A stretch of 32,000 nt of DNA from Acidothermus cellulolyticus 11B. Its GTDB lineage: Bacteria; Actinomycetota; Actinomycetes; Acidothermales; Acidothermaceae. The stretch spans positions 1,230,001 to 1,262,000 of the forward strand of contig NC_008578.1 of the NCBI RefSeq assembly GCF_000015025.1. Reading direction: 5' to 3'. The notes under the pieces were generated by a model. That model made no database searches. It was not told the DNA's origin and saw only the letters and a list, made by a program, of their open reading frames with translations. Below, in pieces: positions 5,598 to 21,158 of the stretch. The translations under genes were made by a program, and so were the position numbers. Each line of letters starts with the position of its first letter. The stretch's first letter is position 1.

Positions 5598-7793
<2,196 letters not shown>

Positions 7794-7803
7794 GACGGCC
7801 ATC

Positions 7804-9867
7804 ATGCGCAGTGTCGACGACCTGGAGGTCGCCGGCAGGACGGTCTTCGTCCGGGTCGACCTCAACGTGCCGCTGGAAGCAACCGATCAGGGCCCACGGA
7901 TCACCGACGACAAGCGCATTCAAGCGAGCCTGCCCACGATCCGTGACCTGCTCGGCCGTGGTGCACGGGTTGTGCTGCTGGCCCACCTCGGCCGGCCCAA
8001 GGGTGAGGTCCGCCCGGAGCTCTCCCTCCGGCCGGTTGCGGCACGGCTCGCGGAGCTGCTTGGCGAACCGGTCGCTTTCCCTGATACCACCGACGGCGGG
8101 GTTGCCGGCGAAGCGGCGCGCGCGCTCGTCGCGCAGTTACGCCCCGGGCAGGCCGCCCTGCTGGAGAACCTCCGCTTCGAGGCGGCGGAGACCAGCAAGG
8201 ACGACGCCGAGCGCGCGGCGTTTGCCGAGCGGCTCATCGCCCTCGCCGGCGAGGAGGGGGCGCTGTACGTCGGCGACGGCTTCGGCGCCGTGCACCGCAA
8301 GCACGCCAGCGTGTATGACCTGCCGCTCCGCCTGCCGCATGCCGCTGGACGCCTCGTTCTCGCCGAGGTGAGCGTGCTGCGCCGCCTCACCGAGAACCCC
8401 GACCGTCCGTACGTCGTCGTCCTCGGCGGGGCGAAGGTCTCCGACAAGCTCGGTGTCATTGCCAACCTGCTGGAGAAGGTCGACCGGCTTCTCATCGGCG
8501 GCGGAATGGCGTACACCTTCCTCGCCGCGCAAGGGCATGAAGTCGGCCGTTCGATCCTCGAGGCGGATCAGGTGGACGCCGTCCGCGGCTTCCTTGCCGA
8601 GGCGGAGAAGCGCGGCGTGGACCTCGTCCTTCCGGTCGACATCGTCGCGGCGTCCCATTACGCGCCGGACGCCGACCACGTCGTCGTGCCCGCGACCGCG
8701 ATCCCGGCCGACCGCGAGGGGCTGGACATCGGACCGCAAACCCGCGAGCTCTTCGCCGCCAAGCTGGCCGACGCCCGGACCGTGTTCTGGAACGGTCCGA
8801 TGGGCGTCTTCGAATTCGACGCCTTCGCGGCCGGCACCCGGGCGGTGGCCGAGGCGATCGCCCGTCTCGACGGTCTCACCGTCATTGGCGGAGGGGACTC
8901 GGCAGCGGCGGTACGCAAACTCGGATTCCCTGAGTCCGCATTCCGTCACGTCTCGACCGGGGGCGGCGCAAGCCTGGAGTACCTGGAAGGCAAGGAACTG
9001 CCGGGCCTTCAGGCGTTGGAGGCCGACACAAGGCAAGGAACTGCCGGGCCTTCAGGCGTTGGAGGCCGACACGCCGTGAGCCGGTCGGGATCGCCGGCCC
9101 GCAAACCGCTGATGGCCGGCAACTGGAAAATGCACTACACCCATTTGGAAGCGATCGCGCACGTCCAGAAGTTGGCCTTCATCCTCTCCGAGGCCGACTA
9201 CGAGCGGGTCGAGGTCGCCGTCCTCCCGCCGTTCACGGCGATCCGCAGCGTCCAGACATTGGTGGACGGCGACAAGCTCCCGATCCGTTACGGCGCTCAG
9301 GACGTCTCGCCGTATCCCTCCGGGGCGTACACCGGGGACATCTCAGCCGGAATGCTGGCCAAGCTCGGCTGCAGCTACGTGATCGTCGGACATTCCGAGC
9401 GGCGTCACTATCACCACGAGAACGACGAGCTGATCAACGCGAAGGTGCGGGCGGTGATCGGGGCTGAGATGACCCCGATCCTCTGCGTTGGTGAACCGCT
9501 TGACGTGCGCCGGAGCGGCAGGCACGTCGAGTTCACCCTCGGTCAGCTGGACGCCGATCTCGCCGGACTCTCCGCTGAGCAGGTCGCCTCGCTCGTCATC
9601 GCCTACGAACCGGTCTGGGCCATCGGCACCGGTGAGGTCGCCACGCCGAAGGACGCCCAGGAGGTGTGCGCGGCGATCCGCGCCCGGCTGGCCGAGAGCT
9701 TCGGTGACGCCGCGGCGCGATCAGCCCGGATCTTGTACGGCGGGTCGGTCAAGAGTGATAATGCCGGCGGGATCATGGAGGAGCCGGATGTCGATGGCGC
9801 ACTCGTGGGCGGCGCAAGCCTGGACGCCGAGGAGTTCGCACGGATCGTGCGATACGACACGAAGTAG
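7804..9867 (+). CDS. pgk: Phosphoglycerate kinase fused in frame to triosephosphate isomerase (687-aa ORF as sequenced)
   Basis: A single open frame runs from 7804 to 9867. The N-terminal ~409 aa carry PGK motifs ([37 protein letters not shown]). A 15-aa linker [15 protein letters not shown] follows. A complete TIM comes next ([33 protein letters not shown]). The fusion is caused by the 43-bp duplication at 8987-9072. Confidence 0.85.
8987..9072 (+). repeat. Perfect head-to-tail tandem duplication, 2 x 43 bp
   Basis: 8987-9029 and 9030-9072 are both aaggcaaggaactgccgggccttcaggcgttggaggccgacac with no mismatch and no spacer. The flanking bases differ, so the unit is exactly 43 bp. Confidence 0.97.
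9076..9867 (+). CDS. tpiA: Triosephosphate isomerase module, with its native GTG start and RBS retained inside the fusion ORF, so it could still be initiated independently
   Basis: GTG at 9076 is preceded by GGAGG at 9061-9065 and opens [20 protein letters not shown]... (263 aa). ATG at 9112 is an alternative start. All TIM catalytic motifs are present. Confidence 0.7.
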
Positions 9868-9903
9868 CGTCACTTCGGCGACATCTCGTACAACGAGGTC
9901 GCC
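9860..9903 (+). terminator. Two adjacent stem-loops at or after the tpiA stop, a candidate operon-end structure with no U-tract
   Basis: The first hairpin is cgaagt-agcgtc-acttcg (9860-9877) and spans the TAG stop. The second is ggcgac-at-ctcg-tacaa-cgag-gtcgcc (9877-9903), with 6+4 bp of stem. There is no T-run, so a terminator role is uncertain. Confidence 0.3.
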
Positions 9904-10079
9904 ATCCGTAACTATCGGGTCACGAAACGCGGTAGATTCGCCGAGAAACCCGAGCTCACCGGTCGCTGGAGCTACAGTCGCAGCGATCGGATGCACCACG
10001 CTGAGCCGCCAGGCGCGGCTTGGTGGACTGTCGGAACTACTGGCGGGCCGCTCACAAGGCGGCCGGAAGAAGGAGTGAG

Positions 10080-11825
10080 ATGCTCGGCACACGCAGTGGA
10101 TTCCGGGTGGCTGCCGGATTCGCCGTCCTGGCGTTGGCGGCGACAGCGTGCGGCAGCAAAGGGGGCGGCGGCAGCGCCTCTCAGGGCCGGATCAAAGGAG
10201 ATCCCAACACCATCAACTCGGTCGCCAATCCGAAGAAGGGCGGTACGTTCACATACGCCCTGGAGAAGACGATCGACAACTGGAACATCCTGACGTCGGC
10301 GGGGAACACCTTCGAGACGGCCGAGGTGATGGATGCCATCTACCCGTCGACTTTCATTGCGCAGCCTGACCTCTCCGTCAAAATGAATGACGACCTGCTG
10401 CTTAGCGCCGAGGTCACCAACCAGAACCCGGAAACGATCGTCTACAAGATCAACCCGAAGGCTGTCTGGTCCGACGGGGTGCCGATCAACGCCGATGACT
10501 TCAAGTACGTCTGGCAAGCCAGCGCCAACTGTAAGGACTGCGACGTCGCGTCGTCCGTCGGATACACCTCAATCCAGTCGATCGAGGGCTCCGGCCCGAA
10601 CAACCAGACGGTGACCGTGACGTTCAAGCAGCCGTTCTCTGACTGGAAGTCGCTGTTCGGCCCGCTGCTCCCGGCGCATGCGGCGACGCCGAAACCGACC
10701 GACGAGCAGACGCTCGCGGACAGCTGGAACCACGGCTTCGCCGACAATCCACCGAAGATTTCCGGTGGTCCGTATGTCATCAGCTCCTACCAGAAGGACC
10801 AGAGCGTCACGTTGGTGCCGAATCCGAAGTGGTACGGCAAGAAAGGCCCGTACCTGGACAAGCTCGTGTTCCGAATGATTACGGATGCGACCCAGGAACC
10901 GCCGGCGTTGCAGAACCACGAGATTGACGCGATGTATCCCCAGCCTGAGGTTGACCTCATCAAGACGCTGAACGGGATGAAGAACGTCGTCTACCAGGAG
11001 GATCTCGGCCTCATATTCGAACACTTCGACTTCAACCTGGAGAACAAGGCGCTCACCCTGCCGGTGCGTCAGGCGCTGTTCACGGCGGTGAACCGCCAGC
11101 AAATCCTGGACGCCACGGTGAAGCAGTTCGACCCTGACGTCACGGTGCTGAACAACCGGATGTTCGTGCCAGGCCAGAAGGGCTACCAGGACAACGTCAC
11201 CAAGTACGGTCTTGGCACTGGGGACATCGCCAAGGCGAAGGACATCCTGACCAAGGCCGGTTACAAGATTGAGAACGGTAAGCTCATCCAGCCGGACGGC
11301 ACGCCCTTCCCGGCTCTCACGATGCAATACACGGTCGGCAACCAGATCCGGCAGACGGAGTGCCAGCTCTTCGCCCAGGCGGCGAAGCAACTGGGTGTGA
11401 CCGTCAACGTCCAGAGCACCGACAGTCTGGGCAAGACACTCACCAACGCGGACGCGCAGCACCACTTCGACGTCGTCGTCTTCGCGTGGGTGGCGACACC
11501 GTTCCCGGCGTCAGGTAACGCCCCGTTGTATGAGAGCAACAAGGCGCGAGGCGGCGACTGGGGCGGCAACTACGGTCACTGGGTGAACTCGCAGGCCGAC
11601 CAACTGCTCCAAGATGCGACGTCCAACCTGAATCCGGACCAGGTCATCAAGGATCTCAACGAGGCCGACCAGCTCATCTCCCAGGACGCATACACGTTGC
11701 CGCTCTACCAGAAGCCGACGCTGCTGGCCTACTACAACACGTGGGGCAACATCCGAGACAACGCGACCAGCGTCGGACCGCCGTACAACGTGCAGGAATG
11801 GGGTTTGAAGCCCTCGGCGGCCTGA
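10080..11825 (+). CDS. ABC transporter substrate-binding lipoprotein, family 5 (Dpp/Opp peptide-type)
   Basis: The ORF is 581 aa from the ATG at 10080, with an AAGGAG RBS at 10069-10074. It has a signal peptide with lipobox LAATAC. Its size and its K/N/D/T/Y-rich composition are typical of family-5 SBPs. It is followed by two permease genes and two ATPase genes. The substrate cannot be told from the sequence. Confidence 0.85.
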   Translation: MLGTRSGFRVAAGFAVLALAATACGSKGGGGSASQGRIKGDPNTINSVANPKKGGTFTYALEKTIDNWNILTSAGNTFETAEVMDAIYPSTFIAQPDLSVKMNDDLLLSAEVTNQNPETIVYKINPKAVWSDGVPINADDFKYVWQASANCKDCDVASSVGYTSIQSIEGSGPNNQTVTVTFKQPFSDWKSLFGPLLPAHAATPKPTDEQTLADSWNHGFADNPPKISGGPYVISSYQKDQSVTLVPNPKWYGKKGPYLDKLVFRMITDATQEPPALQNHEIDAMYPQPEVDLIKTLNGMKNVVYQEDLGLIFEHFDFNLENKALTLPVRQALFTAVNRQQILDATVKQFDPDVTVLNNRMFVPGQKGYQDNVTKYGLGTGDIAKAKDILTKAGYKIENGKLIQPDGTPFPALTMQYTVGNQIRQTECQLFAQAAKQLGVTVNVQSTDSLGKTLTNADAQHHFDVVVFAWVATPFPASGNAPLYESNKARGGDWGGNYGHWVNSQADQLLQDATSNLNPDQVIKDLNEADQLISQDAYTLPLYQKPTLLAYYNTWGNIRDNATSVGPPYNVQEWGLKPSAA

Positions 11826-11845
11826 CGTCCTGACATGAGACGCTG

Positions 11846-11882
11846 CGAGTGGATGGCCGCCAACCGGGCGGCCATCCACTCG
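11846..11882 (+). promoter_or_regulatory. Intercistronic stem-loop after the SBP gene (16-bp perfect stem, 5-nt loop)
   Basis: The sequence is cgagtggatggccgcc-aaccg-ggcggccatccactcg. It starts 20 nt after the SBP stop and ends 26 nt before the permease ATG. No U-tract follows. Confidence 0.6.
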
Positions 11883-11908
11883 GTGTGGCGACGGTAGCGA
11901 GGCTCGTG

Positions 11909-12892
11909 ATGCTGGCCTACACGGTGCGGCGAATTCTCGTCGCTATTCCACTCCTTATTGTTTCGACCTTCGTGGTCTTCCTGCTCGTCACGTTCTCCGG
12001 CGATCCGCTCGCGCAGTTACGGACGAAGCAGCCCCCGCCGACCCCTCAGGTCATCGCCAATTACCGGCACATGCTTCGGCTTGACCAACCGATTCTGCTC
12101 CGGTACTGGCACTGGATCACCGGGCTGCTGCACGGCGATTTCGGGCCGTCCGTTCAGGGTGGCGGTGCGCTGAACATCGGTCACGAACTCGCCCGGCGGA
12201 TCGTCGTCTCGTTGCGGCTGGTCATTGCGGCCATCATCATTGCGATGATTATCGCGGTGATTGTCGGCGTCGTCAGCGCGGTGCGCCAGTACACCGTCAC
12301 CGATTACTTCCTCACCTTTACCGGATTCCTTTTTCTCTCGCTGCCCATCTTCTGGTTCGCCTTGCTGCTCAAAGAAGCCGCGATCTGGCTGAACGTGCAT
12401 GTCGGCACCCGCATTCAGACACTGGGGGAGAGCTCGCCGACCGTCGGTCCCGGCTTTGGGAATCACTTCGTCGACGCACTCGAGCACCTCATCCTGCCGA
12501 CGATTGCGCTCGCATTGGGCACCTACGCGGCGTGGAGCCGGTTCAACCGGGGATCGATGCTTGAGGTGCTCTCCAGCGACTACATCCGCCTCGCGCGCGC
12601 CAAAGGCCTGCGTCGTTCCCGGGTCTTGGTGCGCCACGCCCTGCGTACCGCGCTCATCCCGTTCGTCACGGTGACGGCACTCGATATCGCCGGGCTGCTC
12701 AGCCAGACCATCGTCACCGAGACGGTCTTCCAGTGGCGTGGCATGGGCGACTTCCTGTTCAGCGCTATCAAGGCTTTGGACGTGTACGCCGTCCTCGCCT
12801 GGCTGCTCGTCGCCGCAATCATTGTCATTGTCTTTAACCTGATTGCGGATTTGCTGTACGCCGTGCTCGATCCCAGGATCCGCTATGAGTAG
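11909..12892 (+). CDS. ABC transporter permease (DppB/OppB-like)
   Basis: The ORF is 327 aa from the ATG at 11909 (MLAYTVRRILVAIPLLIV...). It is a multi-TM hydrophobic protein with the conserved cytoplasmic loop SDYIRLARAKGLRRSRVLVRHALR. GTG at 11906 is an alternative start. Confidence 0.88.
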   Translation: MLAYTVRRILVAIPLLIVSTFVVFLLVTFSGDPLAQLRTKQPPPTPQVIANYRHMLRLDQPILLRYWHWITGLLHGDFGPSVQGGGALNIGHELARRIVVSLRLVIAAIIIAMIIAVIVGVVSAVRQYTVTDYFLTFTGFLFLSLPIFWFALLLKEAAIWLNVHVGTRIQTLGESSPTVGPGFGNHFVDALEHLILPTIALALGTYAAWSRFNRGSMLEVLSSDYIRLARAKGLRRSRVLVRHALRTALIPFVTVTALDIAGLLSQTIVTETVFQWRGMGDFLFSAIKALDVYAVLAWLLVAAIIVIVFNLIADLLYAVLDPRIRYE

Positions 12893-13859
12893 CCGGCCCG
12901 AGGAACCGCTGAAACTCTCCGCGCCGAGTGCGCAGATCCAGGGGGCGCCGCTGGACCGGGGACCGGCGACCGAGCCCGGCGAGTACGAGTTCACCGTCCG
13001 CGCACGGTCACAATGGCAGCTGGTCTTGCGCCGGTTCTTTCAGCATCGGCTCGCCGTCGTGAGCCTTGGCGTGTTCGTGGCCATCATTTTGTTCGCCTTC
13101 GTGGGCGGTGCACTCTGGCACTACAGCTACCAGCAATTCACCAACGACTACAGCGCGCCGCCGAGTCTCAAGCACCCCTTCGGCACGGACGCGGCGAGTC
13201 ACGACACCTTCGCGCAAGTTCTTCGCGGCACTCAACGGTCGCTGGAAATTGCGCTCTTCGTCGCGGTTGCGTCCACCGCGTTCGGCACCGTGTACGGAGC
13301 GATCGCAGGGTTCTTCCGCGGTCTGCTGGACGCGGCCATGATGCGCCTCGTCGACCTCTTCCTCACCTTCCCGCTGCTCGCCGTCGCCGCGATTCTGGGC
13401 GACCAGCTAGGTCCGAAGGCAAACGGCTGGCTGTGGATCGCGCTGGTCATCAGCGCCCTCACCTGGCCGTACGTGTCGCGCGTTGTCCGTGGGGTCGCCC
13501 TGTCGATCCGCGAAAAGGAGTACATCGAAGCGGCCCGTGCCCTCGGCGCCAGCAATGGACGGATCATTCTGCGGCACGTCATCCCCAACGTGATGGGTCC
13601 GGTCATTGTGACCGTCACGATTCTGGTCGCTGCGGCGATCCTCACCGAGACCGCCCTGTCGTTCGTCGGTTTTGGCGTGCAGGCCCCGGACACGTCCCTC
13701 GGTCTCTTGGTCAGCCAGAATCAGACGGCAATCGAAACACGCCCGTGGCTGTTCTATTTTCCCGGCGTCTTCATCATCCTGATCGCCCTCACCATCAACT
13801 TCATTGGTGACGGGTTGCGGGATGCGTTCGACCCCACGCAGCGGCGGGTGCGGGCATGA
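12885..13859 (+). CDS. ABC transporter permease (DppC/OppC-like)
   Basis: The ORF is 324 aa from the ATG at 12885, overlapping the upstream stop by 8 nt. It has a multi-TM profile and the loop EYIEAARALGASNGRIILRHVIPN. Confidence 0.88.
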   Translation: MSSRPEEPLKLSAPSAQIQGAPLDRGPATEPGEYEFTVRARSQWQLVLRRFFQHRLAVVSLGVFVAIILFAFVGGALWHYSYQQFTNDYSAPPSLKHPFGTDAASHDTFAQVLRGTQRSLEIALFVAVASTAFGTVYGAIAGFFRGLLDAAMMRLVDLFLTFPLLAVAAILGDQLGPKANGWLWIALVISALTWPYVSRVVRGVALSIREKEYIEAARALGASNGRIILRHVIPNVMGPVIVTVTILVAAAILTETALSFVGFGVQAPDTSLGLLVSQNQTAIETRPWLFYFPGVFIILIALTINFIGDGLRDAFDPTQRRVRA

Positions 13860-14968
13860 CCGGCGAGTTGGTGAACGGCTCCTTCACCCCGACGGCCGCA
13901 ACCGGGTCGAACGGCCTGCTCACGGTGGCGGACTTGCACGTGGACTTTCCGACGGACGACGGCATCGTCCGGGCGGTCCGCGGCATGTCGTACACCCTCG
14001 CCCCTCGGGAAGTGCTGGGCATCGTCGGTGAATCCGGTTCGGGAAAATCGGTCGCGTCACTCGCGGTGATGGGTCTGCTGCCGAAAAACGCCCAAGTACG
14101 GGGCACCGTCCGGTTCCGGGACGAAGACCTGCTGGGCCTGACGGAGAATGGTTTGTCCCGCTACCGCGGCGAGCACATCGCGATGATTTTCCAGGATCCG
14201 ATGACCAGCCTGAATCCGGTGTACACCGTCGGTTGGCAGATCGTCGAGGCCATCCGCGCCCATCGCGATATCAGCAAGCCCGCCGCACTCCGCCAGGCGG
14301 TCGAACTGCTGCGGGTGGTCGGAATTCCGCATGCCGAAGAGCGGGTTCACAATTATCCGCACGAATTCTCCGGCGGCATGCGGCAGCGGGCCGTCATCGC
14401 CATGGCCATCGCCAACGATCCCGACGTCATCATCGCGGACGAACCGACGACCGCGCTTGACGTCACGGTGCAAGCGCAGGTGCTGGAGAGCTTGCGGGCG
14501 GCCCGGGAGCGCACCGGCGCTGCAATGATCCTCATCACCCATGACCTGGGGGTGGTCGCCGGCCAGGCGGATCGGGTCCTCGTCATGTACGCCGGCCGGG
14601 CGGTCGAAGTCGGCACGGCCGACGACGTGTTCTATCGACCCCGGATGCCGTACACTCTCGGCCTGCTCGGCAGCCTGCCGCGGCTGGACAGCACCGGACG
14701 GCGCCGGCTGACGCCCATCCAGGGTTCCCCACCGTCACTGATCAACCTGCCACCGGGCTGCCCGTTCGCGCCACGCTGTCCGATCCGGCAACCCATGTGT
14801 CTGGTCGAGGAGCCTGAGCTTCGCCCAACGGATCGTCCGGACCACTTGGCGGCATGTCATTTCAGCGACCAGCTGGTGGGTGTCTCCCCGGGTGATCTGT
14901 TCCGCCCGACCGCCCGAGACGATGTGCTCCCGGCAGAGGGGGAGCCGGGACCGGAGGTGTCCTCGTGA
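13856..14968 (+). CDS. ABC transporter ATP-binding protein (DppD/OppD-like)
   Basis: The ORF is 370 aa and has an ATGA overlap with the permease stop. Motifs are Walker [10 protein letters not shown], signature [12 protein letters not shown], Walker [13 protein letters not shown], and an oligopeptide-type C-terminal domain with CPFAPRCP. Confidence 0.92.
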
Positions 14969-16023
14969 CCATGACGGAAACCTTGGGTTCCCCACCGGCG
15001 CCGGTGGGCCGCGAGCCCATTCTCGCGGTCCGCGACCTCGTCAAGCATTTCCCGGTGCGAGGGCGCGGGTTGGTCCGCCGCGTCGTCGGTCAGGTGCACG
15101 CGGTCTGCGGAGTGTCTTTCGACCTCTATCCAGGGGAAACCTTGGGTCTGGTCGGCGAGTCAGGGTGCGGGAAGACGACGACCAGCCGGGTCGTTCTCCG
15201 GCTGCAACCGGCGACCGCCGGGCAGATCGTCTTCCAGGGACAGGACATCACCACACTCTCCGCCCGCCAGATGCGCAGCCTGCGACGCGAAATTCAAATC
15301 ATCTTCCAGGATCCCTACGCCTCACTCGATCCGCGCATGCCGGTCAGTGAGATCGTGGCGGAGCCCCTGCGCATCCACGGCCGCTACAACGGGCGGACCG
15401 GACGGCGCCGTGTCGCTGAACTGCTCCAGACCGTCGGGCTCAACCCGGAGCACGGCAACCGCTATCCGCACGAATTCTCCGGCGGTCAGCGGCAGCGGAT
15501 CGGCATCGCTCGTGCTCTGGCCCTTCGGCCGAAGGTGCTCGTCCTCGACGAGCCCGTCTCCGCTCTGGATGTCTCGATCCAGGCGGGTGTGCTGAATCTG
15601 CTGCAAGAGCTGCAGGAGCAGTTCGGTTTGGCATACCTGTTCGTGGCCCACGATCTGGCCGTCGTGCGGCATATTTCGCATCGCATCGCCGTCATGTATC
15701 TCGGCAGGATCGTGGAGATTGCGAACACTGACGAGCTGTTCGCCGCGCCCGCGCACCCGTACACTCAGGCCCTGATCTCGGCGATACCGATTCCCGATCC
15801 GCGCAAGGAACGGGCACGGAAGCGGATCGTCATCACCGGTGACGTGCCAAGTTCCGTCAACCCGCCGAGCGGTTGCCGGTTCCGTACCCGCTGCCCGTTA
15901 TTTGCCGAAGCCTTGACCGATGAGCAGCGCCGGCGGTGCATCGAGGAGGTCCCCGAGTTGATTGATCGCGGTCAGGGTCATCCGGTCGCCTGCCATTACG
16001 CTCGGGTGGTGCAGGTACTATGA
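14965..16023 (+). CDS. ABC transporter ATP-binding protein (DppF/OppF-like)
   Basis: The ORF is 352 aa. Its GTG overlaps the upstream TGA, and ATG at 14971 is an alternative start. Motifs are Walker [10 protein letters not shown], signature [12 protein letters not shown], Walker [13 protein letters not shown], and C-terminal CRFRTRCP. Confidence 0.92.
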
Positions 16024-17051: not shown

Positions 17052-17992
17052 CCGGTGGTGGCCTCGGCCGCCTCGGTCGCCGGATCGGCCGACATGCTCA
17101 GCCGGCGCAGCACCTCGCTGTAGGTATCGTCGGGGTCGAGACGGCGCATTTCTTCGGCAAGCAACTCCGGGGTCGGCCGGCGGGGGAGCGGCACGGTGCG
17201 GTCCGGTTGGCCTGGTCGGCTGAGACGGGCAAGCCGGCCGTCCGGCCGGGTAATCGCAATGTCACCGCTGCGGGTGCAGAGCCGCACCTCGGTGATGCCC
17301 GGGCCTTTGCTGACCCGGCGTTCAACCTCGATACCGAGCCGCCACTCCAGCCAGGTGGCGAGCAGTTCTGCGCTGGGATTCCGACGCGCCGCCGCGACGA
17401 CACCTCCGGTGAGCGGATCGAAAGGTTGGTCGAGTGCGGCGGCAAGCAGCGTGCGCCACGGGGTGACGCGGGTCCAGGCGAAATCCGTGTCACCCGGGGT
17501 GTGATGCGCCGCCCGCTCCCGGAGGGTGGCGAGTGGATCCCGGTTCGCGGCGCTGTCGGTGACCCGTCGCTGGGCCAACGCACCGAGCTCGTCATGGGCC
17601 GGGTCGACCGGGCCGCCCCCGGGCCACCAGACCAGCACCGGAGCGTCCGAAAGAAGCAGGGGCAGGACGACCGACGCGGCGTGCTGGCGAAGCGGTCCGT
17701 ACAGCCGGAGCACGGCGACTTCGGCCAGCGAGTAGTCCTCACCCACCCGCAATTCGGCGTCCATCCGTGGGGTGCTGCGGTCGCCGGTGCGCCGGATGAC
17801 CGCGACGATCCGGGACGGATGTTCCCGCGAGGCGGCAACGGCCGCGCGTACGGCGTCGTAGTGGCCGGCTTCGTCGACGTCAATGACCAGAGTGAGGACC
17901 ATGCCGAGCGCGGCGATACCGGCCCGTCGGCGCGCCTCGCCGAGCGCGGCGAGCACCTCGGCCGCCCGGGTGTCGGTGAGATCCCGGTTCAT
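17048..17992 (-). CDS. opcA: Glucose-6-phosphate dehydrogenase assembly protein OpcA
   Basis: The ORF is 314 aa from the ATG at 17992 (MNRDLTDTRAAEVL...), which overlaps the zwf stop (ATGA). It has an OpcA-like segment VLPLLLSDAPVLVWWPG and the conserved zwf-opcA-pgl position. The 510-aa ORF extending to 18580 overlaps zwf and is Arg-rich junk. Confidence 0.82.
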   Translation of the reverse strand: MNRDLTDTRAAEVLAALGEARRRAGIAALGMVLTLVIDVDEAGHYDAVRAAVAASREHPSRIVAVIRRTGDRSTPRMDAELRVGEDYSLAEVAVLRLYGPLRQHAASVVLPLLLSDAPVLVWWPGGGPVDPAHDELGALAQRRVTDSAANRDPLATLRERAAHHTPGDTDFAWTRVTPWRTLLAAALDQPFDPLTGGVVAAARRNPSAELLATWLEWRLGIEVERRVSKGPGITEVRLCTRSGDIAITRPDGRLARLSRPGQPDRTVPLPRRPTPELLAEEMRRLDPDDTYSEVLRRLSMSADPATEAAEATTG

Positions 17993-19530
17993 GGCCGCCG
18001 CCAACTCCGGCCGTCCCGGGCCAGCATCTCGTGGGCGCACGCCGGTCCCCACCCGCCGGCGGGATAGGGCTCGGGTGGTCCCTGCGCCGCCCAGAACTCC
18101 TCGATGGGATCGAGGATTTTCCAGGCCAGTTCGACCTCCTCGTGGCTGGGGAAGAGCGGCGGGTCGCCGAGCAGGACGTCGAGCAGCAGCCGCTCGTACG
18201 CCTCGGGGCTCGACTCGGTGAACGACTCGCCGTACGCGAAATCCATGTTGACGTCGCGCACTTCCATCGCGGTGCCGGGAACTTTTGAGCCGAAGCGCAG
18301 CGTCACGCCCTCGTCCGGCTGGATCCGGATGACGAGCGCGTTCTGACCCAGCTCCTCGGTGGCGGTCTTGCTGAACGGCAAGTGCGGCGCGCGTTGGAAG
18401 ACGAGGGCCACTTCGGTGACACGCCGGGCGAGCCGTTTGCCGGTGCGCAAGTAGAACGGCACACCGGCCCAGCGCCGGGTGTCGACCTCCAGTTTTATCG
18501 CAGCGAACGTCTCGGTGTGCGAATTCTTCGGAATGCCGTCCTCTTCGAGGTAACCGCGAACCCGTTCCCCGCCCTGCCAACCGGCGGCGTACTGCCCGCG
18601 TGGCGTGTACAGCGCCAAATCGCGGGGCAGCCGCACGGCGGAGAGCACTTTCGTCTTCTCTTGGCAGAGCGCGTCGGCATCAAAACTCACCGGCTCTTCC
18701 ATTGCCGTCAAGGCAAGGAGCTGAAGCAGATGATTCTGGATGACGTCACGGGCTGCGCCGATACCGTCGTAATAGCCGGCCCGCCCGCCGATGCCGATAT
18801 CCTCCGCCATCGTGATCTGTACGTGATCGACGTACGACCGGTTCCAAATCGGCTCGAAGAGCGTGTTGGCGAACCGGAGGGCGAGGATGTTCTGAACGGT
18901 TTCCTTCCCGAGGTAGTGGTCGATGCGGAACACTGCCTCCGGTGGGAACACCTCGCTGATGATGGCGTTCAATTCGCGGGCGCTCTGCAGGTCGTGGCCA
19001 AATGGTTTCTCGACGACGATGCGCCGCCACGCGTGTCCTTCGCTGGCCGACAGGCCCGAACGACGCAGTTGCGAGATGACCTGCGGAAAGAATTTCGGCG
19101 GTATCGACAGGTAGAAGGCGTGATTGCCGCCCGTGCCGCGGACCCGGTCCAGGTCACGGATGGTGCGGGCCAGCGTGTCGAACGCCTGATCGTCGCCAAA
19201 TTCCCCGGGGACGAACCGGAATCCCTCCGCGAGCTGGGCCCACACCTCTTCGCGGAACGGCGTACGCGCATACTGCTTGACCGCGTCGTGGACCACTTGC
19301 GCAAAATCCTCATTCGCCCAATCCCGCCGGGCGAATCCCACCAGGGCGAATCCGGGAGGCAGCAGTCCCCGATTCGCCAGATCATAAATCGCCGGCATGA
19401 GCTTCTTGCGCGAAAGATCGCCTGTCACGCCGAAAATGACCAGTCCGCACGGCCCGGCCACCCGCGGCAACCGGCGGTCCGCAGGGTCGCGGAGCGGATT
19501 GGCAACCGTCGACATCCTCGGATCCGTCAC
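17989..19530 (-). CDS. zwf: Glucose-6-phosphate 1-dehydrogenase
   Basis: The ORF is 513 aa from the GTG at 19530, or 508 aa from the ATG at 19515. Motifs are GVTGDLSRKKLMPAIY (NADP fold), EKPFGHD and RIDHYLGKE. Confidence 0.94.
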   Translation of the reverse strand: MTDPRMSTVANPLRDPADRRLPRVAGPCGLVIFGVTGDLSRKKLMPAIYDLANRGLLPPGFALVGFARRDWANEDFAQVVHDAVKQYARTPFREEVWAQLAEGFRFVPGEFGDDQAFDTLARTIRDLDRVRGTGGNHAFYLSIPPKFFPQVISQLRRSGLSASEGHAWRRIVVEKPFGHDLQSARELNAIISEVFPPEAVFRIDHYLGKETVQNILALRFANTLFEPIWNRSYVDHVQITMAEDIGIGGRAGYYDGIGAARDVIQNHLLQLLALTAMEEPVSFDADALCQEKTKVLSAVRLPRDLALYTPRGQYAAGWQGGERVRGYLEEDGIPKNSHTETFAAIKLEVDTRRWAGVPFYLRTGKRLARRVTEVALVFQRAPHLPFSKTATEELGQNALVIRIQPDEGVTLRFGSKVPGTAMEVRDVNMDFAYGESFTESSPEAYERLLLDVLLGDPPLFPSHEEVELAWKILDPIEEFWAAQGPPEPYPAGGWGPACAHEMLARDGRSWRRP

Positions 19531-21158
19531 TAGGCCAGCTCGTTGGCGGCGTCAAGGACCTGTTCGATGCCGGCCGTCCGGTCCCGCAGATGGAGCCGGA
19601 TCGCCGGGCGGCCGCGTTGGCGCAGTGCCCGCAAATCGCCCAGCGCCTGGGCAAGCTGCAACCGGCCGAAGGTGAACGGCCGGCCGGGAATTTCCAGATC
19701 GGCCTCATGCGCGCCGGTGAGCTGGAGGAAAACGCCGACCTGCGGGCCGCCCTTGTGGTACTGCCCGGTCGAGTGCAGGAACCGGGGCCCCCATCCGAAG
19801 GTCACCGGGCGGCCGGTGTGCAGGGCCAGGCTCTTGCGCAACAGCGCGGCGGCTGCATCCTCATGGCGGTCCAGGTACGCCATGACAGCCAGATATCCGT
19901 GCTCCGGTATCGCACCGAGCAGTACGGCGAGCACGTCCCGAATCGTCGCCGCGCCCGCCAGGAGCTCGGGATCGTCGGCGTACACCGCAACAGCGTCCTC
20001 GACGAAGACTGGCGGCCGTTCGGTGAGCGGACCGGAACCCGCTTCGTCGAGAATCCGCGCGGTGTTCTCCTTGGATTCCGCCACATTCGGCTGGTCGAAC
20101 GGGTTGATGCCGAGCAGACGGCCGGCGAGGGCGGTGCCGAATTCCCAGGCAAGGAAGGAACCGCCGAGGGTGCCTGAGACGGTGACGCCTTCGAGATTCA
20201 GCGGATTTCCGAGCGTGACGAGCACGCGATCGGGGAGGTCGAGGTAGTCCGCCGCATCGACCGATTCGACAACGACCGGTAGCAGACCCGTGCCTCGTTT
20301 CCCGGTGGATTCGGCGAGGAGTTGCTCCGCCCAATCCGCAAAACCCGGCTGCCGGGATCCGAAATCCGCGAAGAAGATTTTGTCCCGGCCGCGTCGGCCG
20401 GCACCGCCGAGGAGCGCACCGAGGAGCGCCCCGGGACCGTCGTCCGCTGCCACAGTCTCGGCGAAAGCGGCGGCGTCGTCGAGCAGGCCGGCGACATCCA
20501 CCCCGGCGAGGGCGGTAGGCACCAACCCGAAAGCGGACAGGGCGCTGTACCGCCCGCCGACGTTCGGATCGGCGAGAAACACCCGGTAATCGGACTCGCG
20601 GGCGATTTTCTCCAACGGGGAACCGGGATCGGTGACGACGACAATGCGTTCGGCCGGGTCAATTCCCGCATTCCGGAAAGCCGCTTCGTAGACCCGACGG
20701 TGACTGTCGGTTTCGATGGTCGTGCCGCTCTTGCTGGAGACGACGAGCACGGTGTGCTCCAACCGATCGGCCAGCGCGTTGCGGATCTGGCCGGGGTCGG
20801 TGGTGTCCAGGACGGTGAGCCCGACGCCGGCCGTCGCAGCAATAACTTCCGGGGCGAGCGACGAGCCGCCCATTCCGGCGAGGACGACGTGCGTCAGACC
20901 GGCGGACCGGACGCTTGCCGCGAACGCGCGGAGCTCGGGGAGAAATTCCCGTGAGCTTCGCGGCAAGTCGATCCAGCCGAGCCGGATCCGAGCCTCTGCC
21001 TCGGCCTCCGGTCCCCACAACGTGGCGTCCTTTGCCGCAAGCCGCGCGGGGACACCGGCGAGTTCCGCAGCCGCTTCCCGAGCCGTTTCGAGAAGCTGCT
21101 CACCGGCGACGGTGACGATGACACCGCCGGCCTCAACCGAGTGCGTGTGCACGCTCAT
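19530..21158 (-). CDS. pgi: Glucose-6-phosphate isomerase
   Basis: The ORF is 542 aa. SIS-domain motifs are [12 protein letters not shown] and [13 protein letters not shown]. Its ATG overlaps the tal stop (ATGA). It is embedded in the pentose-phosphate operon. Confidence 0.85.

Follow-up and report, generated by a model that had tools for sequence, protein, structure and literature searches.

We analyzed a 32,000-nt stretch of the Acidothermus cellulolyticus 11B chromosome (NC_008578.1, positions 1,230,001 to 1,262,000 of the forward strand; hereafter the window, whose own numbering is used throughout), in which a perfect 43-bp tandem duplication joins the phosphoglycerate kinase (PGK) gene pgk and the triosephosphate isomerase (TIM) gene tpiA into one open reading frame (ORF) of 687 aa. 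We regard this, with a probability of roughly 0.75, as a real and very recent gene fusion that is specific to the 11B lineage and is tolerated rather than demonstrably adaptive. GenBank and UniProt already list the fused ORF for strain 11B, and the PGK-TIM architecture was known. What is new here is the founding mutation together with its unfused, near-clonal ancestor.

The two copies of the 43-bp unit lie on the forward strand at 8987-9029 (copy 1, AAGGCAAGGAACTGCCGGGCCTTCAGGCGTTGGAGGCCGACAC) and 9030-9072 (copy 2). They are adjacent, head-to-tail and identical base for base, as the first-pass annotation of this DNA had reported and as we found both by reading the sequence and by direct string comparison. 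Tandem Repeats Finder returned the same element (8987-9072, period 43, 2.0 copies, 100% matches, score 172). On neither side does the identity continue for even one more base (8986 is G and 9029 is C; 9073 is G and 9030 is A). No other perfect tandem of 15 bp or more occurs in the window, and the chance expectation for such a repeat at the base composition of the window is about 7e-18. The duplicated stretch corresponds to the last 14 codons of pgk minus the final Pro codon, and the ribosome-binding site of tpiA is inside it. Copy 1 is in the native pgk frame, while copy 2 is read +1 out of frame as part of a 15-aa linker and retains the tpiA Shine-Dalgarno (SD) sequence GGAGG at 9061-9065. 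The two-copy junction reads GTTGGAGGCCGACAC joined to AAGGCAAGGAACTGC, and the single-unit form reads TACCTGG, then AAGGCAAGG...GACAC, then GCCGTGA.

The ancestral stop/start overlap, GTGA, is located at 9076-9079 (forward strand), with the GTG of tpiA at 9076-9078 and the former TGA of pgk at 9077-9079. In 11B, the former TGA lies outside the pgk frame, and the GTG is read within the chain as Val. After one unit was removed in silico, a PGK of 410 aa (...LQALEADTP) and a TIM of 263 aa were obtained, with the GTGA overlap between them. Since 43 is 3n+1, the pgk frame with both copies present misses the TGA and joins tpiA in frame. The first-pass annotation had proposed these mechanics, the restoration of two genes from one copy, the 15-aa linker read from copy 2, and the survival of GGAGG at 9061-9065 and of GTG at 9076, and each of these points agrees with our reading of the sequence.

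The 687-aa ORF that it had described at 7804-9867 (forward strand) is likewise present in the ORF list and its translation. It is identical at 687/687 residues to P0127, 'phosphoglycerate kinase / triosephosphate isomerase [Acidothermus cellulolyticus 11B]', and corresponds to ABK52887.1, WP_011719950.1 and UniRef100_A0LTX7, the last of which is named 'Multifunctional fusion protein'. The pgk portion (7804-9030, forward strand) encodes PGK residues 1-409 (...EADT), which are identical to the stand-alone PGK P0122, and lacks only the ancestral Pro410 and the stop. Counted from the GTG, the tpiA portion (9076-9867, forward strand) encodes a 263-aa TIM; it is recognized by the Pfam TIM profile and is a separate gene elsewhere, the exact 263-aa protein being called as its own gene on 16 contigs. 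The Pfam PGK match covers residues 4-397 (profile 1-379 of 379, E=1e-141), and the Pfam TIM match covers residues 435-684 (profile 1-244 of 245, E=8.5e-91).

The cluster at 90% identity that contains P0127 pools stand-alone PGKs (410 aa) and stand-alone TIMs (263 or 251 aa), bridged by the 11B fusion. The contig index contained no exact match to the 687-aa protein; the type-strain record is apparently masked there. Our literature search on the 11B fusion, using A0LTX7, ABK52887 and the run and metagenome-assembled genome (MAG) accessions, found no discussion, proteomics or biochemistry.

To compare the junction among populations, we used exact lookups of GAPDH, TIM and two PGK variants, which yielded contigs from about 20 sequencing runs and two NCBI MAGs. 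The one-copy allele predicted by the first-pass annotation was found in every other A. cellulolyticus population sampled and in a sister species. In the alignment of the junction with relatives that it had suggested, all junction-spanning loci outside 11B (23/23) were gap-free against the one-copy form and showed a normal coupled junction, with a PGK of 409-410 aa, a separate TIM of 263 aa (251 aa in the NCBI annotation) and a 4-nt overlap. The populations SRR11077862-77 and SRR9435557 are near-clonal to the window, with 1-3 single-nucleotide polymorphisms (SNPs) per ~13 kb, and have one copy; the other one-copy populations are 97.9-98.9% identical to the window. One copy is likewise present in the sister species (Acidothermus sp., 88% PGK identity), in which GGAGG and GTGA are retained. 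The arrangement GGAGG-N10-GTGA is kept as far as this species, with the SD sequence inside the 3' end of pgk, and the gene order gap-pgk-tpiA was seen in 20+ contigs. Because one copy is present in all other sampled populations and in the sister species, the duplication is the derived state and is specific to the 11B lineage. The 'Multifunctional fusion protein' entry thus describes strain 11B, not the species.

The start of TIM differs by annotation in these contigs. The NCBI MAGs use an internal ATG at 9112, giving 251 aa, and the Prodigal/Logan calls use the GTG at 9076, giving 263 aa. We favor the GTG, because GGAGG-N10-GTG and the ARKPL residues upstream of the ATG are conserved.

Apart from the 43 bp, no indel separates the window from ~13 kb of Illumina-derived contigs. 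SNPs between 11B and the near-clonal SRR11077xxx population are located at 8151, 11548 and 11866. According to outgroup polarisation, the near-clonal population acquired the change at 8151 (PGK Q116H), and 11B acquired those at 11548 (Q to R in an oligopeptide-binding protein) and 11866, which also occur in the run SRR9438086. The exact 11B-type oligopeptide-binding protein was found only in SRR9438086 and SRR29904083. As both lineages carry derived SNPs of their own, the duplication is placed on a very short 11B branch.

Over 5277, 5144 and 6089 nt, contigs of SRR9438085/86 match the window with 100.000% identity, and the 11B-specific SNPs are present in them. These contigs come from the Logan assembly, which uses a k=31 de Bruijn graph (Cuttlefish2, Minia3) in which all 31-mers are distinct and singleton k-mers are removed. 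A Logan contig cannot hold a 43-bp tandem repeat, because every 31-mer in it is distinct. In SRR9438086, the upstream contig stops at 9016 (base 30 of the unit) and the downstream contig begins at 9043 (base 14 of the unit). We simulated k=31 unitigs and found that a two-copy or a mixed sample gives ends at exactly 9016 and 9043, while a one-copy sample gives one unbroken unitig. In another run, two contigs share an overlap of exactly 30 nt, which fits k=31. The match between simulated and observed ends indicates that the SRR9438086 reads contain the k-mers of the unit-to-unit junction two or more times. Otherwise, both break points could arise only through independent variants at two positions, the bases directly next to the unit on either side. 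Given these contig ends, the junction does not appear to be missing from what should be independent reads of the strain, as it would be for a joining artefact. The duplication is probably not an assembly artefact.

We searched for PGK-TIM fusions in other lineages by phmmer, exhaustively over 1.84 billion representatives. About 15-20 clusters of full-length fusions were recovered, with lengths of 635-685 aa and 39-51% identity. The named clusters belong to Thermotogota, Ca. Fermentibacterota and Ca. Delongbacteria, and others come from unnamed metagenomic lineages. The conserved fusions of all these groups (P0135-P0152) have the same domain order as the 11B protein and align over its full length (residues ~3-683). 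The PGK-TIM architecture is therefore recurrent, stable and viable in other phyla. Established fusions differ from that of 11B in several respects. They form multi-member clusters with a conserved length of 650-661 aa, so that they appear old and stabilised, whereas 11B is a singleton in an unfused species. Their linkers have 10-18 residues, against ~34 in 11B, of which 15 are out of frame. Among P0133, P0138, P0169 and P0255, we also noted proteins of ~795 aa with PGK in the C-terminal half and giants of 1918 and 3600 aa with PGK or TIM segments.

The first-pass annotation had pointed to the covalent PGK-TIM of Thermotoga maritima as a precedent. This comparison holds, and fusions occur in several phyla beyond Thermotoga. 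PMC7729029, citing Schurig et al. 1995 and Yu & Noll 1995, describes the 'fus' PGK-TIM of T. maritima and T. neapolitana as a protein of ~70 kDa that forms a tetramer. Like the Thermotoga enzyme, the 11B protein would be a chain of ~70 kDa with an N-terminal PGK and a C-terminal TIM, derived from adjacent genes of a gap-pgk-tpi cluster in a thermophile. However, the Thermotoga fusion is fixed lineage-wide, has a short linker and is biochemically characterised, while that of 11B is confined to one strain lineage, originates in a 43-bp duplication and is known from sequence. Free PGK is reportedly also produced in Thermotoga.

The 11B ORF contains a complete PGK followed by a complete TIM and aligns to natural fusions in one stretch. 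Compared with 10 natural fusions, the invariant columns of the TIM part include N440-W441-K442, H530-S531-E532-R534 and E602-P603-W605...G610, so that the motifs NWK and GHSERR are conserved. Those of the PGK part include R38, H61/G63/R64, R124, R165, K211/K215 and G363-G364. From established knowledge of both enzymes, we take these residues to have catalytic roles, and the catalytic and substrate-binding residues of both enzymes appear to be conserved. AlphaFold2, run on an alignment with natural fusions, gave a mean predicted local distance difference test (pLDDT) score of 88.1, both domains being modelled with confidence. Scores fell below 50 only at residues 408-432, which comprise the out-of-frame peptide and the N-terminal extension of TIM. 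The model is of a monomer and supports foldability only; within this scope, it gives the expected picture of two folded enzymes on a flexible, disordered tether. No solved structure with PGK and TIM in one chain was found.

We then surveyed the junction in Actinobacteria, where 77 of 80 genomes of other species could be parsed. None of them has a PGK-TIM fusion, and pgk terminates before tpiA in 77/77, with a 4-nt overlap in 8/77. A stop between pgk and tpiA is thus found in other A. cellulolyticus, in the sister species and throughout this survey, and the fusion is not fixed in the lineage. The one-copy allele of A. cellulolyticus has the same coupled gap-pgk-tpiA operon (ATGA/GTGA) as seen in Actinobacteria, and 11B keeps the SD sequence, the GTG and the TGA in copy 2 and at the junction. 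The one other 'fusion' among close homologues and candidate for a second actinobacterial case, P0078 (612 aa, on a 1.3-Mb contig, with PGK and TIM Pfam matches), was rejected as frameshift junk, both its C-termini being nonsense rich in Arg, Gly and Pro. While both C-termini are frame-shifted in P0078, the 11B protein keeps both domains whole up to the penultimate residue, and a second read set backs its junction. As P0078 illustrates, public protein sets do contain artefactual PGK-TIM 'fusions'.

The first-pass annotation had left three explanations open for the lack of divergence between the copies, namely a recent event, an unstable state or an artefact. The recent, real event gains support from the one-copy state elsewhere, and the artefact is weakened by the SRR9438086 break points. 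If it were an artefact, the second copy would have been introduced during cloning, finishing or assembly of the 2006 reference, and the support from SRR9438086 would be non-independent (simulated or contaminated reads). The identity of the copies would fit this, as would the single copy in every other population, the lack of any other assembled contig with the junction in the collections, and the existence of read-through ORFs such as P0078. With Sanger reads of several hundred bases, a 43-bp repeat is crossed without difficulty, and collapse or expansion by the assembler is unlikely. The window is indel-free against ~13 kb of Illumina-derived contigs except for the 43 bp, which argues that the reference is locally of high quality. 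Moreover, the SRR9438086 contigs break at both of the exact bases predicted, which could be mimicked only by two unrelated SNPs flanking the unit, and this run carries both 11B-specific derived SNPs. We consider an artefact unlikely. Several points do weigh against a real fusion. The break-point argument is not independent if the SRR9438085/86 reads were simulated from the reference. The case is carried by contigs rather than raw reads, and the ratio of one-copy to two-copy alleles is not recoverable from contigs. The exact 11B genotype is present in only 2-3 public runs. A junction 30-mer gave 0 matches in the genome and metagenome contig collections. The 0 matches are uninformative for 11B, because a PGK-based scan did not recover its locus either, and this locus is evidently masked in the genome collection. 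Finally, there is 0 nt of microhomology at the boundaries of the duplication, which is unusual for slippage-type duplications.

A real fusion could also have been selected in the 11B lineage, as in Thermotoga, if a covalent PGK-TIM helps a thermophile through the thermostability of an oligomer or a fixed 1:1 stoichiometry. A. cellulolyticus is a thermophile grown at 55 °C, and the architecture has been fixed independently in several phyla. In PMC7729029, oligomerisation of the best-studied fusion, that of hyperthermophilic Thermotoga, is linked to thermo-adaptation; the same source points out that the PGK and TIM steps are not consecutive, which argues against such a benefit. Every other population of this thermophile, like its sister species, has unfused genes, and for an event of such recent date drift or a bottleneck in culture is a sufficient explanation. 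The linker, about twice as long as in established fusions and made of out-of-frame sequence, has the look of an accident yet to be refined, not of an optimised design. We find an adaptive origin improbable, and the fusion is probably near-neutral, tolerated rather than selected. It is most unlikely, in our view, that 11B cultures hold a mixture of one-copy and two-copy cells through collapse and re-formation of the repeat. The two alleles would then convert into each other, in effect switching between separate and fused enzymes, and the reference would have caught one of them. Recombination or slippage can remove perfect tandem repeats, and the k=31 break points are identical for a pure two-copy sample and a mixture. 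Nevertheless, no one-copy contig with the 11B genotype was found in SRR9438085/86, and there is no evidence of regulation; re-creation of the same microhomology-free duplication would be very rare, so that at most one-way reversion is plausible. Very unlikely, too, is that the 43-bp repeat serves as a natural, revertible toggle, in which one copy gives separate, coupled PGK and TIM and two copies give a covalent 1:1 enzyme that is advantageous in some conditions, such as high temperature. If this were true, 11B would be a living snapshot of the first origin of a Thermotoga-type enzyme and of selection on a newborn fusion.

For the recent, tolerated fusion that we favor, the following course of events can be proposed. 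In the ancestor, pgk and tpiA were separate and translationally coupled through the GTGA overlap, with tpiA one base behind the pgk frame. In this arrangement, any insertion of 3n+1 upstream of the TGA fuses the two genes. A single recent mutation in the 11B lineage would then have duplicated 43 bp in tandem at the junction, the extra copy (3n+1) carrying the pgk frame past the TGA and into the tpiA frame. Every ribosome starting at pgk would now produce a 687-aa chain consisting of a complete PGK, a disordered tether of ~25 residues and a complete TIM. The tether would be made of 15 new residues, read from copy 2 out of frame, and the N-terminal extension of TIM itself. Coupling by termination and reinitiation would thus be replaced by read-through into tpiA. 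The accident may have survived because at nearly any other place in these genes a 43-bp duplication would cut an essential enzyme short, while here only Pro410 is changed and a tether is added.

Replication slippage between short direct repeats was considered as the source of the duplication; it would account for identical head-to-tail copies, but in the absence of microhomology at the boundaries it is not supported. A search for a structural trigger (hairpin or palindrome) at the duplication found nothing significant, the fold z of -0.43 giving no notable hairpin, and Rfam had no matches in the window.

As to the products, we infer that the fusion protein is expressed and active, because the strain can be cultured and pgk and tpiA are single-copy core glycolytic genes in the cluster. 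Some free TIM may also arise by internal initiation at the retained SD sequence and GTG. Free PGK should no longer be made, as the sequence offers no route to it except proteolysis. On reading of the sequence, no slippery heptamer for programmed frameshifting, which could regenerate free PGK, was seen in either copy.

Gene fusions are usually seen long after the founding mutation has been erased; in 11B, the founding event is still legible. The unfused ancestor persists in near-clonal relatives at ~2 substitutions per 10 kb, which provides a clean natural pair for measuring the cost or gain of a newborn fusion. One frame-restoring tandem duplication at an overlapping stop/start would be one route to the recurrent PGK-TIM architecture.

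The first gene of the gap-pgk-tpiA cluster, gap (6786-7793, forward strand), was identified from its ORF and translation and encodes a GAPDH of 335 aa. The exact protein is present on 23 contigs, with Gp_dh_N and Gp_dh_C Pfam matches. In the whiA-gap intergenic region, Tandem Repeats Finder reported a second, imperfect repeat at 6651-6679, with the 14-bp unit GGGCGGACGCATCC in 2.1 copies and 93% matches. This GGGCGGACGCATCC repeat is ~110 nt upstream of the gap ATG (6786) and could be a regulatory site. Downstream of tpiA, a gap of 212 nt (9868-10079) with no ORF of at least 80 aa is followed by an opp-type ABC transporter operon (10080-16023). In many actinobacteria, secG is located after tpiA.

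Two further observations concern the reverse strand. ARAGORN called an 83-nt tRNA-Thr(cgt), with the anticodon at position 32, at 19162-19244, inside the glucose-6-phosphate dehydrogenase ORF (17989-19530, reverse strand). This call is probably a false positive, because it lies inside GC-rich coding sequence. A 542-aa ORF (19530-21158) is located between the transaldolase gene and zwf in a tkt-tal-?-zwf-opcA-pgl cluster. It has a weak partial match to the PGI profile of Pfam (39.8 bits, profile 95-237 of 486) and may encode a divergent glucose-6-phosphate isomerase-like protein.

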